Assembly (NCBI GenBank): GCA_044222185.1
Contig: JBGANV010000012.1
Coordinates: forward strand, 1 to 64,000
Reading direction: 5' to 3'
DNA from: Planctomycetota bacterium
Lineage (GTDB): Bacteria > Planctomycetota > GCA-002687715 > CAIWVZ01
Length of the DNA: 64,000 nucleotides
Part shown: one piece after another, positions 45,189-53,942 of the stretch
Position numbering within the stretch: position 1 is the stretch's first letter
Layout of the letters: every line of letters starts with the position of its first letter
Notes under the pieces: model-generated
The model's database searches: none
What the model saw: only the letters and a program-made list of their open reading frames with translations
Told to the model about the DNA's origin: nothing
Program-made: the position numbers and the translations under genes

Positions 45189-48074
45189 TCATCGACGTTC
45201 AATGGTCGCGTGGAACGTCGTGACCCCGGCGGGCACGACCACGCGTTGTCGGTAGACCTCGGATTCGCTGGCGCGTGCCTCGAGTCGGTACATCCCCGGA
45301 GAGAGGCGGAGATGGGGTTCGGCCGTTCCGTCGATCCCCACGATCGCGAGCAGTGCGCCCGCCTCGTTGAGTGCGACGACGGCCGCGGTTCGCGGTGGCA
45401 CCGCGATTTGCACGTCGACTCCCGCGGCGCGCCGGAGAGTCACCGGGATCGTGGTCTCGCTTCGGATCTCGATCTCCTGCAATGCGGGCGCGCGGGAGGA
45501 GTCGCCGCTCACGACGACCCAATACCGGCCGGGCGCCGCCTCGAACACGAACTCGGACGCGCTCGACGTCATGGCGCAAGGCCCGAGCGGAGTCCCGTCT
45601 TGAAGGAAGACGCCGATCGGACGCGACGGCTCGTCGGCACCAGCTTCGGACTGGACGCGGACGGCCGCGCGTCCGACGACGGGGACGCGAATCTCGCCCA
45701 GGTCCCAAGTCTCGTGGGCCTGGAGCTCGCGCGACCCGAGTGGGATGGGGATGCGCGCGTCGCCCCATTCGAAGACGAGGGTGTAGCGGCCCGGCGGGAG
45801 AGCACCACCCGCCTCGAATCGTCCGGTCTGGGGGTCGGGGCGAAGCGCGCGCGAGGCGTCGCACGCTCCCGCGAACATCTGCACGTATCCGTCCGTCGCC
45901 GGCTTCCCGTCACTCGCCAGGAGCAGGCCGCGGATGTGTGCCGACGGCACGAGTTCGTCGGCGACGACGATCGTGTACTCGGTGTCGCCCGGCGCGACGT
46001 CCTCGAGTGGCGCGAGAGTGCGGCCCGACTCGGGGTCGCGAACGTCGATGCAGAGCGCGGCGGGTGCGGGTGTGGGCACGGCGAAGGAGAATCGGCCCTG
46101 GCCATCCACGGGTCGCGCAGCCAGATCGACGAGCCTCGATTCGACGCGCCGGTAGAGGTGAACGGACGCGTGGACGACGTGCTCGTGCCGATCGACCACG
46201 CGGCCGTGGACACGCAGGTTCTCGTTCCGTGGTGGATCCCACCGCAGTTCGCCGCCCTCCGGAAATTCGAGCGTGGTCGTCGCGTGCTGTTGGGCCGAGT
46301 CGCGCGCGCGGACGAGGCGGCGGCCCGGCAGGATCCCGTCGAGGGAGTAGGTTCCATCGGGCGCGGCGGTCGTCGCACGGGCGCTGAACGGCCCGCTGCC
46401 CGCGACCTGGATGCGAAGTCGATCGGGCGAGAGTCCGCGCGCCGTTCCCACGAGTCGACTCTCCCGGAACAGGGTGATCGACGCGGTGGCGGCCTGCCCG
46501 ACTTCAGCATCGACGCGCGCTTCACCGATCGCGAAGCCCGCGAGGTACGCGACCACGTTGCACGGACCCGCCGGGAGCGAATCCACCCGGAACTGGCCGG
46601 AGTCGTTCGTTCGCGTCTCGACGGCGAGGTCGAAGCTGGCGGCGCCGCTCGCCGCCATCGCGGTCGTTTCCGGCGAGGCGAAGACGCGTACTCCCGCGAG
46701 CGCAGTCCCGTTCGATGAACGGACCGTGCCGGTCACGGACGCGCCGTCGGTCGTGATGCGGAAGTTGCGCTCGACCGGGCGCCCCGTGCCGCCGCCGACG
46801 CGTTGAGGTGCCGCTGGCGCCCGTCCGCGGACGTGGGCGAAGAGGGAGAGCTCGGCGTGGACGTCGCGCGCGGCGTAGCTCCCGTCAGACGTCGTGCGTG
46901 CGACGACCTGGGGCACGCGTCCGTCGCCGCTCACGAGGATCTCCGCGTCGGAGATCGGGCGATCGTCGCCGTCCAGAACCTGGCCCGAGACCGCCGTGCC
47001 CGGATCGAGCCGGTAATCGACGATGCGTTCGTGTCCCGGTTCGATCGTTGCGGCGACCCAGCGCTGCCCACGATCGACGCGAAGCGAGAACGTCGCCGGC
47101 GTGTCGACGATCGGTCCGGTCAAACCCATCGCATCGGTCGTGCGACTCTGTGGCTGGCCGCCCCAGCGCCCCGGGTGAAGGAACCCGACGGTCACGCCCG
47201 CCGCCGCCGTTCCGTCCGGCCACGAGACCCGCGCGCGCAGGCTTCCGACGACGGGGCCGCTGGCCGCGGGCCCGTCCCGATCGGTGAAGGGAATGGCCAC
47301 CGTCACGGCCGGTGTGGCCTGCGAACCGTTGCCCGCATTCGAGCGCCGCGCGAGTTCGTCGTCCGCGGCCATCGGTTGCGCGGTGGCCTGCGGCGACGAG
47401 CTCGGGCCGACGTCGCGCATCCACCACCAGCTCCCGACTCCCGCGAGCACGACGACACACGCCGCGACCGCGACCTTGGTCTGCATCGCCACGAGAACTC
47501 CTTCCATGACCGTCGTCGCCGCGCTGCCGCGCGCGAGGCCGGATCCACCGAGCGCGAGCGCCACGCTGGCCCAGGGATTCGTGCCGCCGTAACGGTCGTC
47601 GAGGTGGTTTCGGAGCCGTGCATGCGCGCGCTTCAGTCGCGTGCGGAAGGTCTCCACGGGTACCCCGACGTGCGCCGCCGCGTCCCGCGCGGACATTCCC
47701 TCGTACCACCGCAACAGGACCGCCTCGCGGAGATCCGGAGCGAGCGCGAGGACCGCATCGGCAACCGCCCGACGCATTGCTTCGCGGTCGGCGAGTTGCT
47801 CCGGCGTCGGAAGCGGCGCTCGTGGCGTCGCGGCTTCCTCGCGTCGCACGCGGCGGGCCGTCTCCCGCTTCAGCTTGCCCGCCAGGTTGCGCGCGACGGT
47901 CGCCAGCCACGCTCGCAGACGCCCCGGCCGACGCGGGCCGCCCTGCGCCGTCGCGAGCCAGGTCCGCTGCACGAGGTCGTCCACGTCGTCCCGCGCCACG
48001 AGCCGCGCGGCCACTGCCCGCAGGAATCGCTCGTGTGCCAGGAGTTCATCGAGTGTCACGCCGTGTGCGGTCAT
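45189..48074 (-). CDS. ECF sigma factor fused via a TM helix to carboxypeptidase-regulatory-like repeats
   Basis: DDLVQRTWL, RAWLATVARN and REAVLLRWYEG...VPVETFRTRLKRA, then a TM helix and repeats VSGQVLDGDDRPISDAEI / VTGTVRSSNGTALAGV. Confidence 0.9.
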   Translation of the reverse strand: MTAHGVTLDELLAHERFLRAVAARLVARDDVDDLVQRTWLATAQGGPRRPGRLRAWLATVARNLAGKLKRETARRVRREEAATPRAPLPTPEQLADREAMRRAVADAVLALAPDLREAVLLRWYEGMSARDAAAHVGVPVETFRTRLKRAHARLRNHLDDRYGGTNPWASVALALGGSGLARGSAATTVMEGVLVAMQTKVAVAACVVVLAGVGSWWWMRDVGPSSSPQATAQPMAADDELARRSNAGNGSQATPAVTVAIPFTDRDGPAASGPVVGSLRARVSWPDGTAAAGVTVGFLHPGRWGGQPQSRTTDAMGLTGPIVDTPATFSLRVDRGQRWVAATIEPGHERIVDYRLDPGTAVSGQVLDGDDRPISDAEILVSGDGRVPQVVARTTSDGSYAARDVHAELSLFAHVRGRAPAAPQRVGGGTGRPVERNFRITTDGASVTGTVRSSNGTALAGVRVFASPETTAMAASGAASFDLAVETRTNDSGQFRVDSLPAGPCNVVAYLAGFAIGEARVDAEVGQAATASITLFRESRLVGTARGLSPDRLRIQVAGSGPFSARATTAAPDGTYSLDGILPGRRLVRARDSAQQHATTTLEFPEGGELRWDPPRNENLRVHGRVVDRHEHVVHASVHLYRRVESRLVDLAARPVDGQGRFSFAVPTPAPAALCIDVRDPESGRTLAPLEDVAPGDTEYTIVVADELVPSAHIRGLLLASDGKPATDGYVQMFAGACDASRALRPDPQTGRFEAGGALPPGRYTLVFEWGDARIPIPLGSRELQAHETWDLGEIRVPVVGRAAVRVQSEAGADEPSRPIGVFLQDGTPLGPCAMTSSASEFVFEAAPGRYWVVVSGDSSRAPALQEIEIRSETTIPVTLRRAAGVDVQIAVPPRTAAVVALNEAGALLAIVGIDGTAEPHLRLSPGMYRLEARASESEVYRQRVVVPAGVTTFHATIERR

Positions 48075-48430
48075 CACGGGTTGAATCCCCGCGAACGCCG
48101 TCGGTGGTTCAACACCGGTCCGGGGGGCGATCGTCACCGATGTCCCGGGGCATCAGTGATCCGTAGAAACCTCTGCGCCGCGACGAATCCGCAGACGAGA
48201 GCGAACGTCACACGCGCATGAACGGGCCTGGGCGTCGGCACGGTCCACTCCTTCCCGGCCAGGTCGGACCGAGCTGCGAGCGTAGTTCCTCGCGATTCGA
48301 AACGCAACGCCCATCCCGGTCGGGAACCACTGACCGTCGAGTCGCGCGTTCGACATCGCGCCGCGACGTGAGCATCACCGCCGCCGTGATAGCCTCCGCA
48401 TCGGCTCATGCGCCGGTGCAGGAGGTTCCC

Positions 48431-51172: not shown

Positions 51173-52198
51173 ATGATCGACGCGCGACGAGTTCTCTGCG
51201 GTGCGAGCGTGCTGGTGATCGGGTGGATCCTCGGTGGCTGTCAAGCTGGCTCGGTGAGCATCGCGGGAGTGATCGAGCCCGTGGTGGCGGACGATGGATA
51301 CGCGCTGACGACATGGCGCCTCGTGCCGCAGGGCGAGGACGACTCACTTCGGACGCCGACGGCGCTCGTCGTCTACGCCACCGGTTCCGAGGACCAGACG
51401 GTGACGCGGGTCATCGGAGAATTCGCCGGGTTTGCGATCCTGGGCGCTCGGGTCGTCCTCCCGGAGCGGCGCGGAGTTCGGGGTGACGAGCCCATCGACG
51501 AGGCGGCGACGCGTCTTGGTGCGACGCGCGGGCGGCGGATCGCCGATCTCGCGGCCGTCGTCCGCGCAGCAAGTCGCGCGGTCGATGAAGGCGTACCCCT
51601 GGTGCTCGTCGGGTCGAGTGAAGGTGCCGACGTGGCCGCCGCGGTCGCCGCCGAGGAGCCCCGCGTCACGCACCTGCTGCTGCTCGGCGGGGGTGGCGGG
51701 TGGACGCAGGCCGATGAGCTGCGCCATTTCGTGCGCTCTCGACCGGGGTATCTCGGCATCCACAGCGAGGCGGAACTCGACGATCGCCTGATGGACATCC
51801 GCCTCCGTCCGAATGCTGCGGAGGATTGGCTCGGGCATCCCTACCGACGGTGGAACTCTTATCTGTGGAATCGGCCTGCGGACGACCTCGTGAAAGTGAA
51901 GCGGCCGATCTTCATCGCCCACGGCGATCGGGACGAAAGCGTGCCCGTCGAGAGCGCCAGAGCTCTGCGCGATGCCTTGTCCGCCGCGTCCTCGGACTTC
52001 GAGTATCGCGAGTATGCCGGTGCCGATCACGCCTTCCTTCTTGCCGACGGAGTGACGTCCGCGTTCCCGCTCGTGGAGGTGGACGTGATCACGTGGCTGT
52101 CGGCGCACGGCGTACTTTCGCCAGCCGACGCCGCGTCCTTCACCGCTCGGGTGCGCGCCGCTCACCCGCGTTCGTTCCGAACGCCCGGCTCCGCCTGA
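51173..52198 (+). CDS. Alpha/beta hydrolase lipoprotein
   Basis: Lipobox LGGC, nucleophile elbow GSSEG, HGDRDESVP (Asp) and GADHAF (His). Confidence 0.87.
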   Translation: MIDARRVLCGASVLVIGWILGGCQAGSVSIAGVIEPVVADDGYALTTWRLVPQGEDDSLRTPTALVVYATGSEDQTVTRVIGEFAGFAILGARVVLPERRGVRGDEPIDEAATRLGATRGRRIADLAAVVRAASRAVDEGVPLVLVGSSEGADVAAAVAAEEPRVTHLLLLGGGGGWTQADELRHFVRSRPGYLGIHSEAELDDRLMDIRLRPNAAEDWLGHPYRRWNSYLWNRPADDLVKVKRPIFIAHGDRDESVPVESARALRDALSAASSDFEYREYAGADHAFLLADGVTSAFPLVEVDVITWLSAHGVLSPADAASFTARVRAAHPRSFRTPGSA

Positions 52199-52204
52199 CC
52201 GGCC

Positions 52205-52625
52205 CGCGCCGGAGCGCCAGGCTTCGCCTGGCCGGACCGCGAGGCCTCCCGGCCTCGCGTGAACGTCGACGGCTCATCCTCACCAACCACCCCCGCATTC
52301 AATCGCGCACGGACCGACCGGACATGCGGCGCGTCGACGTCCGGTCGCCACTTCCGGCAGGGCGAAGCCCTGCCATCCGGCCGCGCTGGAGCGCGGCGCT
52401 CCTCCGATCGCGAAGCCGGAGCGCCAGGCTTTGCCTGGCCGGACCGATTCGAGGCGAGATCATCCCCCGATTCCGTGACGCTGTCACGAGAGTGAGCGGG
52501 ATGCGCGGCCAGCAATGGAACGTTCTCGGCGACCCGTAGCCGGCGCCACCGATGTCGGGCTGGACCGCCATCCGGAGCGCCAGACGCTTTGCCCGGCTGG
52601 ATCGCGAGGCCTCCGGACTTGCCCG
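52205..52625. repeat. REP-like cluster (forward units at 52211, 52418 and degenerate 52574; inverted unit ~52356-52403)
   Basis: Same GGAGCGCCAGGC-loop-GCCTGGCCGGACC and GGCAGGGC-loop-GCCCTGCC hairpins as the other clusters; lies between convergent genes. Confidence 0.85.
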
Positions 52626-52715
52626 AGCCGTCGTCATGCGCCCCAAAAAAGGACGGCGGAGAGGCCAATGGCCACTCCGCCGTTCAGCACAAGACACTGA
52701 AGTCAGGCGCGGTGA

Positions 52716-53942
52716 TCAGTTCCCGGATTGCCCGGTCACACCGCCGACGATCGGTTTGACGTTCGACTTGGGTTTGCTGGTCATTCCACCGAAGAGCGAA
52801 CGCGAGTGCTCGAGGTTGACTTCAAGTTTCTTGTTCTGTGGTACACGCCCGGTGTACTCCTTGAAGCCGCCCCCTCAACAGCCTCCGAATCGGCCCTCGA
52901 CGACGACCGCCTTGGTCTCGGCGTCGTAGACGATGATCTTCGGAGACTTCGCATCGGGCTTGAACTCGTAGTACTCCTCGCCGCCCCGGCCCATGAATTT
53001 CACGGTCGGGGGCACGGTGAGCTTGTCCTTGTCGATCGAGAACTCGAAGTCCATGTCGAGAGGACCGCCCCACGCCATCGAGGTCGACTTGCCCGCTTCG
53101 ACGGTGAGCGGCTTGCAGTTGGTGCCACGGACCTTGGCGGTTTCGCCGCCCTTCCGCACGAAGCCCCAAAGCAGCTTGTACTCACCGGCTGGAACGGTCA
53201 GTCCGTTCTTGAGCGCCGAAAGCTCGAACGAGATGTCGCCTGCTGCGTTCGCGATCACGGCTGACTGCAGCTCTCCGCCTTCGGACTTGAAGCCCGATGC
53301 GAGATTCACCGTCCCCGTCGGCGTCGTGCACGGCTCGACCTTCACCGAGTCGCCGCCAGGCGTCACGGAAAGTGAGTAGAGCTGGCCGCTGATCGAAATC
53401 GTGCGTGACAGCAGCGACGCCGCCTTGCCCGATCCGACGATCATCGCGTCCGTTCCAAACTCGTCGAACCGCCCGTTGCCGTTCAGGTCGATGAGCTTGA
53501 TGTCACAGCCGGCGACCTTGCCACCCATTGCGCAGGTGCTCAGGTACTTCCACGCCGTGCCTTCGTTGATGATCCGGACCGCATACGAGAAGGCCCGTCC
53601 CTCGCTGGACTTGCCTTTCAACACGACCGAACCACCGACGCCCTTGACCCGCTCATCGACCTTGCCGTCGCCGTTGGTGTCGACGCCAAGCGAGATCCCG
53701 TCGCTCTCCACGAAGAAGCCGCGTCCGCCGGCATGGGGAACCGGGATGATCTGTCGACCATCCGGTTCCGCGCCGAGCGGTAGCGGGACTTCATTGGGAA
53801 CGAGGAACTCCCATTTCGGCGGGACGAAGAGCCTCATTTGAGACTCGGCGCCTCCGCTGCCATCTCCCCCGCGGCACCACCCCGATGAGGCGATGATGCA
53901 CGCGAGGAAGCTGGCCAGGAGCACACGTTGCTCTTTGACCAT
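52716..53942 (-). CDS. Secreted hypothetical protein, candidate selenoprotein (UGA at 52875-52877 read as Sec; 408 aa)
   Basis: GGAGG RBS, signal peptide and EF-hand-like DTNGDGKVD / DLNGNGRFD. The ORF track stops at FGGC*, but the frame continues GGGFKEYTGRVPQNKKLEVNLEHSRSLFGGMTSKPKSNVKPIVGGVTGQSGN* with a hairpin just downstream of the UGA. Confidence 0.72.
52841..52874 (-). promoter_or_regulatory. Candidate bacterial SECIS element
   Basis: mRNA UGA-GGGGGCGGCUUCAAGGA-GUACAC-CGGGC-GUGUAC: a perfect 6-bp stem starting 18 nt after the UGA with a G-containing apical loop. Confidence 0.6.

Follow-up and report, generated by a model that had tools for sequence, protein, structure and literature searches.

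A predicted selenoprotein family of Planctomycetota with an adjacent cysteine–selenocysteine pair on an Ig-like scaffold

The window analyzed here, a stretch of 64,000 nucleotides at the start of contig JBGANV010000012.1 of a Planctomycetota bacterium (GenBank assembly GCA_044222185.1), contains on its minus strand a gene with an in-frame TGA at codon 356. Judged from sequence comparison, this is very probably a true selenoprotein gene, in which the TGA would encode selenocysteine (Sec; U in one-letter code) directly beside a cysteine. The best overall explanation, which we hold with high confidence, is that of an exported selenoprotein of 408 residues whose UGA is decoded by SelB and a downstream hairpin. 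The TGA is conserved, homologues carry Cys in its place, the extension beyond it is coding, the hairpin is conserved and covaries, and the genome holds the Sec machinery.

An earlier note on this DNA had proposed a new selenoprotein at this locus, and its description of the site holds. The apparent stop is a UGA preceded by ...VVEGRFGGC; the frame reads ...RFGGC-TGA-GGGF... and continues on the minus strand for exactly 52 open codons up to a second TGA. The extension begins GGGFKEYTGRVPQNKKLEV, and its full sequence between the two TGA codons is GGGFKEYTGRVPQNKKLEVNLEHSRSLFGGMTSKPKSNVKPIVGGVTGQSGN. A perfect stem GUACAC/GUGUAC with the loop CGGGC begins at the 18th nucleotide past the UGA, which corresponds to a spacing of 17 nt from UGA to stem and of 23 nt from UGA to loop. 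The gene starts with an ATG at 53942, with GGAGG just 5′ of it; all coordinates are collected in Table 1. The note also named checks on its proposal—conservation past the UGA among Planctomycetota relatives, homologues with Cys for UGA, covarying hairpins, and Sec machinery in the genome—and each of these turns out in favor of it, as detailed in the following.

A six-frame search of 61 related genomes with the read-through protein as query finds one or two in-frame TGA codons in 30 of the 31 best places (E ≤ 6e-44), and the homologue alignments continue past the site to query residues ~390–406. The sole exception, in genome G002, breaks off right after ...GRFGGC, where its contig ends. When a Cys homologue serves as query, the family is found in 58 of 401 sampled genomes of the phylum, with TGA in 65 of the 76 places listed; in another order, it is present in 48 of 151 genomes, with TGA in 60 of 63 places. 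The places listed were fetched and de-duplicated to 109 distinct sequences, 15 of which were dropped (long Sec-free paralogues, lost frames, contig edges, and distant forms without an alignable site). Among the remaining 94 members, the site codon is TGA in 86 and a non-TGA codon in 8. Wherever a stop-type codon occupies the site it is TGA (86 of 86), never TAA or TAG. The genome of the window itself carries a paralogue on contig 14 (G000:C14:158123-159247, L021/L093) with 34% identity, its own TGA, and the motif FPGNCUGFGF.

Beyond assembled genomes, a profile search of 1.84 billion cluster representatives returns 1753 relatives at E ≤ 1e-3, including 246 at E ≤ 1e-30. From the 150 matches listed, 147 representatives were transcribed: 101 of them end at profile position 341–350 and at their own C-terminus, as expected for gene calls cut at the TGA, and 21 run past the site. 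The statement of the earlier note that standard annotation would truncate the protein is thereby borne out for the matches listed. Named database records are all designated "hypothetical protein," stem from Planctomycetota metagenome-assembled genomes, have no Pfam domains, and measure about 350 aa; an atlas search with the natural Cys homologue P0036 yields only unnamed Planctomycetota clusters. The long Sec-free paralogues (700–900 aa; G000:C1:1554865-1555542, i.e., L022, and many relatives) have a helical N-terminal half, share residues ~130–340 with the selenoprotein, and show no family match.

Natural homologues bear Cys exactly at the position of the UGA. The full-length sequences P0036, P0054, P0067, P0074, P0099, P0106, and P0118 (384–401 aa) read GGC-C-GGG at the site, and six further C-C forms are present among the cluster representatives. 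The 21 run-on representatives comprise 10 C-C, 2 S-C, 1 L-C, and 1 C-P form as well as 7 divergent sequences without the motif. A locus search with P0036 for the DNA of Cys forms gave one genome locus and two metagenome loci, all of them Sec forms.

Within the 86 Sec forms, a second chalcogen is retained almost always. The pair is C-U in 62 members, C-x-x-U in 9, U-U—two adjacent TGA codons, found in both clades of the family—in 8, U-C in 3, and C-x-U in 1; another 3 carry Sec without a Cys within three residues (A-U, S-U, T-U). At the same site, the 8 TGA-free members show C-C (4), C-P (2), S-C (1), and G-W (1). Apart from this site, the 31-sequence alignment of the family shows no conserved Cys. 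Read in this way, the family conserves a two-chalcogen site within a Gly-rich loop, be it as C-U, U-U, C-x-x-U, U-C, or C-C. In one genus, C-C and U-U copies occur together within the same genomes.

The 52-codon extension is coding and, according to sequence conservation and the structural model, part of the last Ig-like sandwich. Homologues align over residues 1 to ~405, and in the 31-sequence alignment conservation reaches at least 90% at V367, P368, F384, and G385. For the 30 codons after Sec, the ratio of nonsynonymous to synonymous substitution rates (dN/dS) is below 1 in 14 of 16 pairs and amounts to 0.03–0.14 in clean close pairs; the two values above 1 belong to one pair with indels and one pair with just 8 changes. 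The extension is conserved in frame and length without any requirement for a start codon. In the AlphaFold2 model, residues 361–390 form three β-strands with a predicted local distance difference test (pLDDT) score of 87–94, and residues 393–408 are the only disordered part of the extension. Shortly ahead of the stop, clade-1 members have the brief motif G-[GP]-x-T-[PG] in common (here window positions 52719–52760, residues ~395–408), which sits in this Lys/Pro-rich tail modeled as disordered.

The end of the transcription unit appears to lie beyond the second TGA. Located 33 nt past it is an intrinsic terminator, which the earlier note does not mention; its folding energy is −28.8 kcal/mol (z −4.27), a value matched by 0 of 200 shuffles. 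A pattern scan detects no terminator-like element between the two TGA codons; owing to its loop rule, the same scanner also passed over the terminator after the second TGA, which is revealed by the fold and an inverted repeat. Contigs from RNA libraries (three runs of two studies) span the TGA of codon 356 with 0 differences and extend 100–125 nt into the extension (X4, 52774–53758; X5, 52775–53407; X19, 52752–53031); they have no coverage at 52560–52751, from which no inference is drawn. The codon-356 TGA is not an assembly error, since RNA-library contigs of two studies match it without a single difference. Metagenomes that carry the gene come from activated sludge and bioreactors.

The assembly (16 contigs, 7.08 Mb, 93.8% completeness) encodes the Sec machinery, with every component above its curated cut-off: selA reaches 487.3 bits (cut-off 268), selB 330.4 (242), selD 370.6 (125), and tRNA-Sec 74.7 (47). 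The tRNA-Sec gene lies ~80 nt downstream of selA (G000:C1:1631186-1632718), and selD (G000:C14:427704-428624) likewise contains one in-frame TGA, making it a selenoprotein gene in its own right.

The hairpin following the UGA resembles a selenocysteine insertion sequence (SECIS) and occupies a fixed register across the family. Counting the T of the TGA as position 1, the upper stem consists of the pairs 24–34, 25–33, and 26–32. The lower stem occurs as form A, with the pairs 21–37, 22–36, and 23–35, or as form B, with 20–39 to 23–36 and a bulged U35, the latter being the form of most members. This register is present at 70 of the 86 Sec sites versus 404 of 25,576 (1.6%) other upstream in-frame codons of the same genes. 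The 16 Sec sites outside of it mostly have an equivalent hairpin, either shifted by indels or of another geometry, and one (L121) is weak. Each of the eight distinct U-U members (L030, L038, L103, L105, L115, L155, L160, and L171) is followed by a hairpin: in L030 and L038 it stands in the usual register counted from the first TGA, and in L103, L105, L115, L160, and L171 it is shifted out of the fixed register (by +3 nt in L103, L105, and L115). The loop follows the consensus CG[U/G]G[A/C] in most members, always with a G within the first two positions.

Base pairs of this hairpin change in a compensatory manner. In the first 61 distinct sequences—whose counts are not phylogenetically independent, such that kinship inflates the number of events—pair 25–33 is A-U in 20, G-C in 29, and U-A in 6 cases; pair 21–37 of form A (n = 20) is G-C in 10, C-G in 8, and U-A in 2; and pair 23–36 of form B (n = 34) is U-A in 14, U-G in 12, and C-G in 7. 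Upper-stem cells are paired in 169 of 183 cases versus 17–134 when the 3′ partner is slid by 1–3 nt, and the observed pairing is reached by 0 of 10,000 column shuffles. Wobble bases are involved at several covarying positions: in ACC/CGU, UCC/CGA, and GCC/CGC, for example, the initial base of one codon is linked to the third, synonymous base of the Arg codon that comes two codons later.

Besides the kinship behind these counts, several points weigh against the selenoprotein interpretation. Taken alone, the hairpin of the window is ordinary: the 48 nt past the UGA fold at −11.9 kcal/mol (z −0.67), which is not beyond chance with 46 of 200 shuffles as good, and the isolated stem-loop, at −7.6 kcal/mol, passes the published limit of −7.5 narrowly. 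The constraints for bacterial SECIS (bSECIS) elements in the legend of Fig. 2 of PMC13188914—a loop of 3–9 nt, a stem of 4–16 bp, a G in the first two loop positions, a spacing of 16–37 nt, and a minimum free energy ≤ −7.5—were hand-coded from that figure with a contiguous-stem rule. The window hairpin, with its 5-nt loop CGGGC, 6-bp stem, and spacing of 23, lies within them, yet they are passed at 41 of the 86 family Sec sites and likewise at 650 of 2150 (30%) random in-frame codons of family genes. Since 30% of random codons pass, matching a single sequence to a SECIS model is weak evidence, and the case rests on comparison. The RNA-library contigs hint weakly at transcription through the TGA and may stem partly from carried-over DNA. 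Moreover, the hairpin stands in register in 3 of the 8 TGA-free members (L076, L113, and L131), and its conservation could be partly due to the conserved peptide it encodes (PVAV[SR]VP / EY.G[RS]V).

The comparative evidence is nevertheless far beyond chance, and the TGA-free members, used as a control for the hairpin, give a mixed picture. L076, L113, and L131 are each one base away from TGA—L113 comes from the same genus as the Sec form L101, and in L131 (G134:C747) TGG (Trp) replaces the Sec codon ahead of an intact hairpin—and they are read as recent single-base conversions. In three deep C-C genes, the hairpin has decayed, with −5.1, −8.1, and −3.4 kcal/mol versus a mean of −10.45 for the 86 Sec forms, and it is lost in both C-P forms (L125/L129), which have Pro at the Sec position. 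This pattern fits a hairpin that is under selection only while a UGA needs to be decoded.

Readings that dispense with selenium have to be weighed against these data. If the TGA were a real stop, the protein would end at Cys355, and the downstream part would be a separate small open reading frame (ORF) or a non-coding element. Gene callers do end the protein there in every public record seen, and a regulatory or attenuator role of the hairpin is conceivable in principle. However, full-length homologues read through with Cys at this codon, the extension keeps frame and length without a start codon and contributes three strands to the last domain, the terminator stands after the second TGA, and the codon is TGA rather than TAA or TAG in 86 of 86 cases, which leaves a real stop barely credible. 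Alternatively, the UGA might be read by a near-cognate tRNA (Trp, Cys, or Arg) or be reassigned, and the TGG of L131 implies that the position tolerates another residue. On the other hand, the gene itself and many homologues terminate at TGA, and UGA is thus not reassigned; the Sec pathway is complete, the site alternates with Cys—the classical signature of Sec—and the hairpin stands at SelB spacing. Read-through of this kind is very improbable. Even when a real stop, selenium-free read-through, and a pseudogene are taken together, they make up an improbable set.

In the protein, the AlphaFold2 model is all-β apart from a helix at residues 3–17, followed by low confidence up to about residue 30. 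The model divides into an N-terminal part with two DxNGDGxxD loops, a middle β-sandwich, and a C-terminal sandwich resembling Ig and FN3 domains. Cys355 and Sec356 are located in the GGCUGGG loop between strands 346–351 and 363–366 of this last sandwich, where pLDDT falls to 78; the surroundings of the loop include the conserved motifs GEEY and WGGP. No significant Pfam match is found for the whole protein, and NCBIfam release 20.0, including its models of known C-U families, gives 0 families at E up to 1. A Foldseek search against the PDB provides no convincing match (template modeling score < 0.3); a DUF3823 match among its results was rejected for a root mean square deviation above 12. A wide fold search with VIA-align returns generic sandwiches only, with Z 7.0 for residues ~206–297 and Z 5–6 to FN3/Ig-like domains for residues ~295–392; by VIA-align's own account Z up to 7.0 is common, and the N-terminal residues ~30–205 are barely covered by the fold searches. 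The all-β model, the β-sandwich matches, and the lack of any Pfam match to the thioredoxin family agree with the earlier note, which had recognized no thioredoxin fold.

The protein appears to be exported, as the note had also proposed. This is suggested by the hydrophobic N-terminal helix of the model and by homologues whose hydrophobic N-termini end in AxA-Q type motifs, as read by eye. The calcium-binding-like loops of the note are present as motifs: DxNGDGxxD occurs at residues 88–96 and 152–160, and D88, D92, G93, D152, N154, and G157 are invariant or near-invariant. Their Pfam EF-hand and Dockerin matches, at E 0.17–0.8, stay below the cut-offs, and the loops are termed calcium-binding-like on the basis of the motifs.

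For decoding, SelB charged with Sec-tRNA(Sec) would bind the hairpin that starts 17 nt past UGA-356, and Sec would be inserted. Translation would then run on for 52 codons to the second TGA, which has no such hairpin at the right distance and is followed by the terminator. Outside the cytoplasm, the adjacent Cys-Sec pair in its flexible, Gly-rich surface loop might cycle between a selenenylsulfide and a selenolate/thiol state; U-U forms might accordingly adopt a diselenide and C-C forms a vicinal disulfide. Electrons could come from a periplasmic thiol-reductant pathway, and candidate substrates are peroxide, disulfide, and sulfur or selenium species.

Whether the pair is redox-active at all or rather a binding site is less clear-cut. 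Argued from analogy, a redox-active selenenylsulfide, as against binding, seems a fair prospect that falls somewhat short of an even chance; in its favor, any arrangement of two chalcogens is accepted at this site, which also looks like the mobile GCUG arm of thioredoxin reductase. Several observations speak against it: the protein has neither another conserved Cys nor a cofactor domain, clade 1 lacks a conserved redox partner gene, and three members carry Sec without a Cys nearby. From the Cys-Sec redox pair of the earlier note, the conserved pair therefore stands, and the redox role keeps soft-metal or chalcogen binding as its main rival. A genuine selenoprotein could use Cys-Sec as a putative high-affinity site for a soft metal or metalloid (Hg, Cu(I), As(III), Cd) or, in a carrier version of the same idea, hand sulfane sulfur or selenium to a periplasmic respiratory enzyme; we regard binding of either kind as possible but doubtful. 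Several bacterial C-U families in Table 1 of PMC13188914 are metal-linked by name (MerB-like SaoL, HgcA, and MbdU, the "metal-binding double selenoprotein"). Likewise, β-sandwich chains with Ca-loop-like motifs are typical of extracellular binding proteins, and the variants C-U, U-U, U-C, C-x-x-U, and C-C could all chelate equally well. In 4 of 20 loci, the gene is located downstream of a PhsA/YnfE/ArrA-like molybdoenzyme gene on the same strand. Yet this linkage is confined to two related genera and absent from the window, the molybdoenzyme scores far below every curated cut-off—its substrate is thus not assignable—and no metal-resistance or transport genes occur among the conserved neighbors.

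There is also a more speculative idea, unlikely as it stands: the protein might be an extracytoplasmic "chalcogen arm" on an Ig-like scaffold that carries or reduces sulfur, selenium, or soft-metal species for partner complexes, with one SECIS serving two adjacent UGA codons in the U-U members. Such partners could be the PhsA/Arr-like molybdoenzyme in some clade-1 genomes and the 800-aa/500-aa/MoxR/DUF58/BatA cluster in clade 2. The bond involved would be a selenenylsulfide, or a diselenide in U-U forms. If true, the eight U-U members would be a case of two adjacent UGA codons at which insertion is directed by one and the same bacterial SECIS.

Mammalian-type thioredoxin reductase has a C-terminal Gly-Cys-Sec-Gly center, the Cys-Sec pair of which can form a selenenylsulfide. 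The protein described here shares the adjacent Cys-Sec flanked by glycines in a flexible segment, and to this extent the likeness drawn by the earlier note stands as a local G-C-U-G string. It does not extend further: the motif is internal (355–356 of 408, 52 residues from the C-terminus) and sits in an Ig-like loop instead of being penultimate, there is no flavoprotein domain and no Pfam oxidoreductase match, the model is all-β, and the protein is apparently exported. Furthermore, the Sec codon would be decoded by a bacterial hairpin within the ORF and not by a SECIS in the 3′ untranslated region.

Bacterial families with a C-U motif are listed in Table 1 of PMC13188914: SaoL (NF040728), HgcA (NF040863), SaoC (NF040734), SaoB (NF040727), MbdU (NF045648), KCU-star/DUF466 (NF033934), and the 2Fe-2S form Csac_0668. 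As far as that table describes them, they have in common with the present family the vicinal Cys-Sec, decoding by SelB and SECIS, and Cys-containing homologues; they differ in fold class, size, taxon, and predicted location, and they are unrelated to it in sequence, judging by the lack of any NCBIfam match. The same table contains thioredoxin-fold exported selenoproteins (DsbA-like, DsbG-like, TlpA-like UGC, and thiol:disulfide interchange proteins), which likewise are predicted to be extracytoplasmic and pair Sec with a nearby Cys. Unlike these UxxC/CxxU proteins, however, the present family lacks a thioredoxin fold, and the two residues of the pair are immediate neighbors in most of its members. 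Compared with the consensus bSECIS of that source, the window hairpin is a similar in-ORF stem-loop after the UGA with a 5-nt loop, a 6-bp stem, and G followed by G from loop position 2. Most members, being of form B, deviate from it with a 3-bp upper stem, a bulged U, and a 4-bp lower stem, and hence fail the contiguous-stem coding.

The family is not among the 119 families and subfamilies in Table 1 of the May 2026 inventory (PMC13188914), and neither that table nor the literature search contains an adjacent U-U motif. It is not described in the parts consulted of the deep-Sep paper (PMC12013277) and not evident in those of the Planctomycetes genome paper including its Table S9 (PMC4807772), where "hypothetical" selenoprotein candidates are ASPIC/UnbV FG-GAP proteins or undescribed. 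The literature search as a whole, which among selenoproteome supplements covered Table S9, found no description of the family. As a selenoprotein family it is new, and its mode of decoding is the ordinary bacterial one. On the evidence of sequences and model, its standout features are Sec on what looks like an Ig-like exported scaffold, the directly adjacent second chalcogen, and the members with adjacent UGA-UGA codons and one hairpin.

This makes the family a sizeable and phylogenetically broad addition to the selenoproteins that is absent from Pfam, NCBIfam, and the 119-family inventory. Public annotation systematically truncates it, and models as well as pipelines could be corrected. A non-thioredoxin, Ig-like, presumably exported scaffold would widen the known structural contexts of Sec. 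The series C-U, U-U, U-C, C-x-x-U, and C-C represents a natural set for studying the choice of Sec over Cys, and the adjacent UGA-UGA forms offer a way to study the spacing tolerance of SelB/SECIS decoding. The communities harboring it are those of activated sludge and bioreactors, settings in which the chemistry of selenium and metals is of practical importance.

The genomic surroundings were compared at 20 loci with wide flanks; as relatives share synteny, this context provides hints. In the window, the gene stands alone with its own terminator between a Na/H-exchanger-TrkA-CBS gene and a dienelactone-hydrolase-like gene. Clade 1 shows no conserved operon, and the molybdoenzyme, a Tricorn-like protease, and a sigma70-CarboxypepD_reg fusion are each lineage-restricted. 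The upstream molybdoenzyme, a member of the DMSO-reductase family, is found in the clade-1 genomes G006, G011, G017, and G013 (L083-L085, L090), which represent two genera of one family. It measures 944–1151 aa and is nearest to PhsA/YnfE/ArrA; the selenoprotein gene follows it directly in 3 of the 4 loci, with a methyltransferase gene in between in G017 (L085), and a TtrB-like FeS/NrfD fused subunit is present in 2 of the 4. The Tricorn-like protease adjoins the gene in three clade-1 loci. A 982-aa fusion of sigma-70 regions 2 and 4 with a CarboxypepD_reg domain is encoded in the window at 45189–48137 (minus strand), and a similar fusion adjoins the selenoprotein gene in G026.

In clade 2, which includes the contig-14 paralogue, the selenoprotein gene heads a conserved cluster: a protein of ~800 aa in 8 loci, one of ~500 aa in 5, and a MoxR AAA+ ATPase in 4, then DUF58 and BatA-like proteins. 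Neither Pfam nor NCBIfam has a match for the ~800-aa and ~500-aa proteins. At one clade-2 locus, the selenoprotein gene is immediately followed by an AhpC/TSA-thioredoxin gene. A match of one clade-2 neighbor to Omp28 or "Omp28-related selenoprotein" (E 1e-3 to 7e-6) is far below the cut-off and was not used.

Table 1. Features of the predicted selenoprotein gene in the 64,000-nt window.
Feature	Position	Strand	Remarks
Complete selenoprotein coding sequence	52719..53942	minus	408 codons, codon 356 = predicted Sec; TGA translated as U; AlphaFold2 pLDDT 89.1, predicted template modeling score (pTM) 0.84
N-terminal signal-peptide-like segment	53853..53942	minus	residues 1 to ~30: MVKEQR, hydrophobic helix, and Gly-rich linker; suggested by model and homologues
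Predicted Sec codon, in-frame TGA (residue 356)	52875..52877	minus	directly after Cys355 (TGT 52880-52878)
SECIS-like hairpin GUACAC-CGGGC-GUGUAC	52841..52857	minus	6-bp stem, 5-nt loop, G at loop position 2
52-codon extension, residues 357-408	52719..52874	minus	conserved columns, modeled strands, dN/dS
True stop, likewise TGA	52716..52718	minus	homologues stop at the equivalent point with TGA, TAA, or TAG
Intrinsic terminator	52645..52683	minus	15-bp arms 52683-52653 and T-run; inverted repeat and fold

As the earlier note had described, the extension ends just short of a cluster of units resembling repetitive extragenic palindromic (REP) elements. These units of ~30 nt are partly palindromic (type GCCGGAGCGCCAGGCTT.GCCTGGCCGGACCG) and occur in 4 copies at 52175–52614, between the terminator of the selenoprotein gene and the neighboring hydrolase gene.

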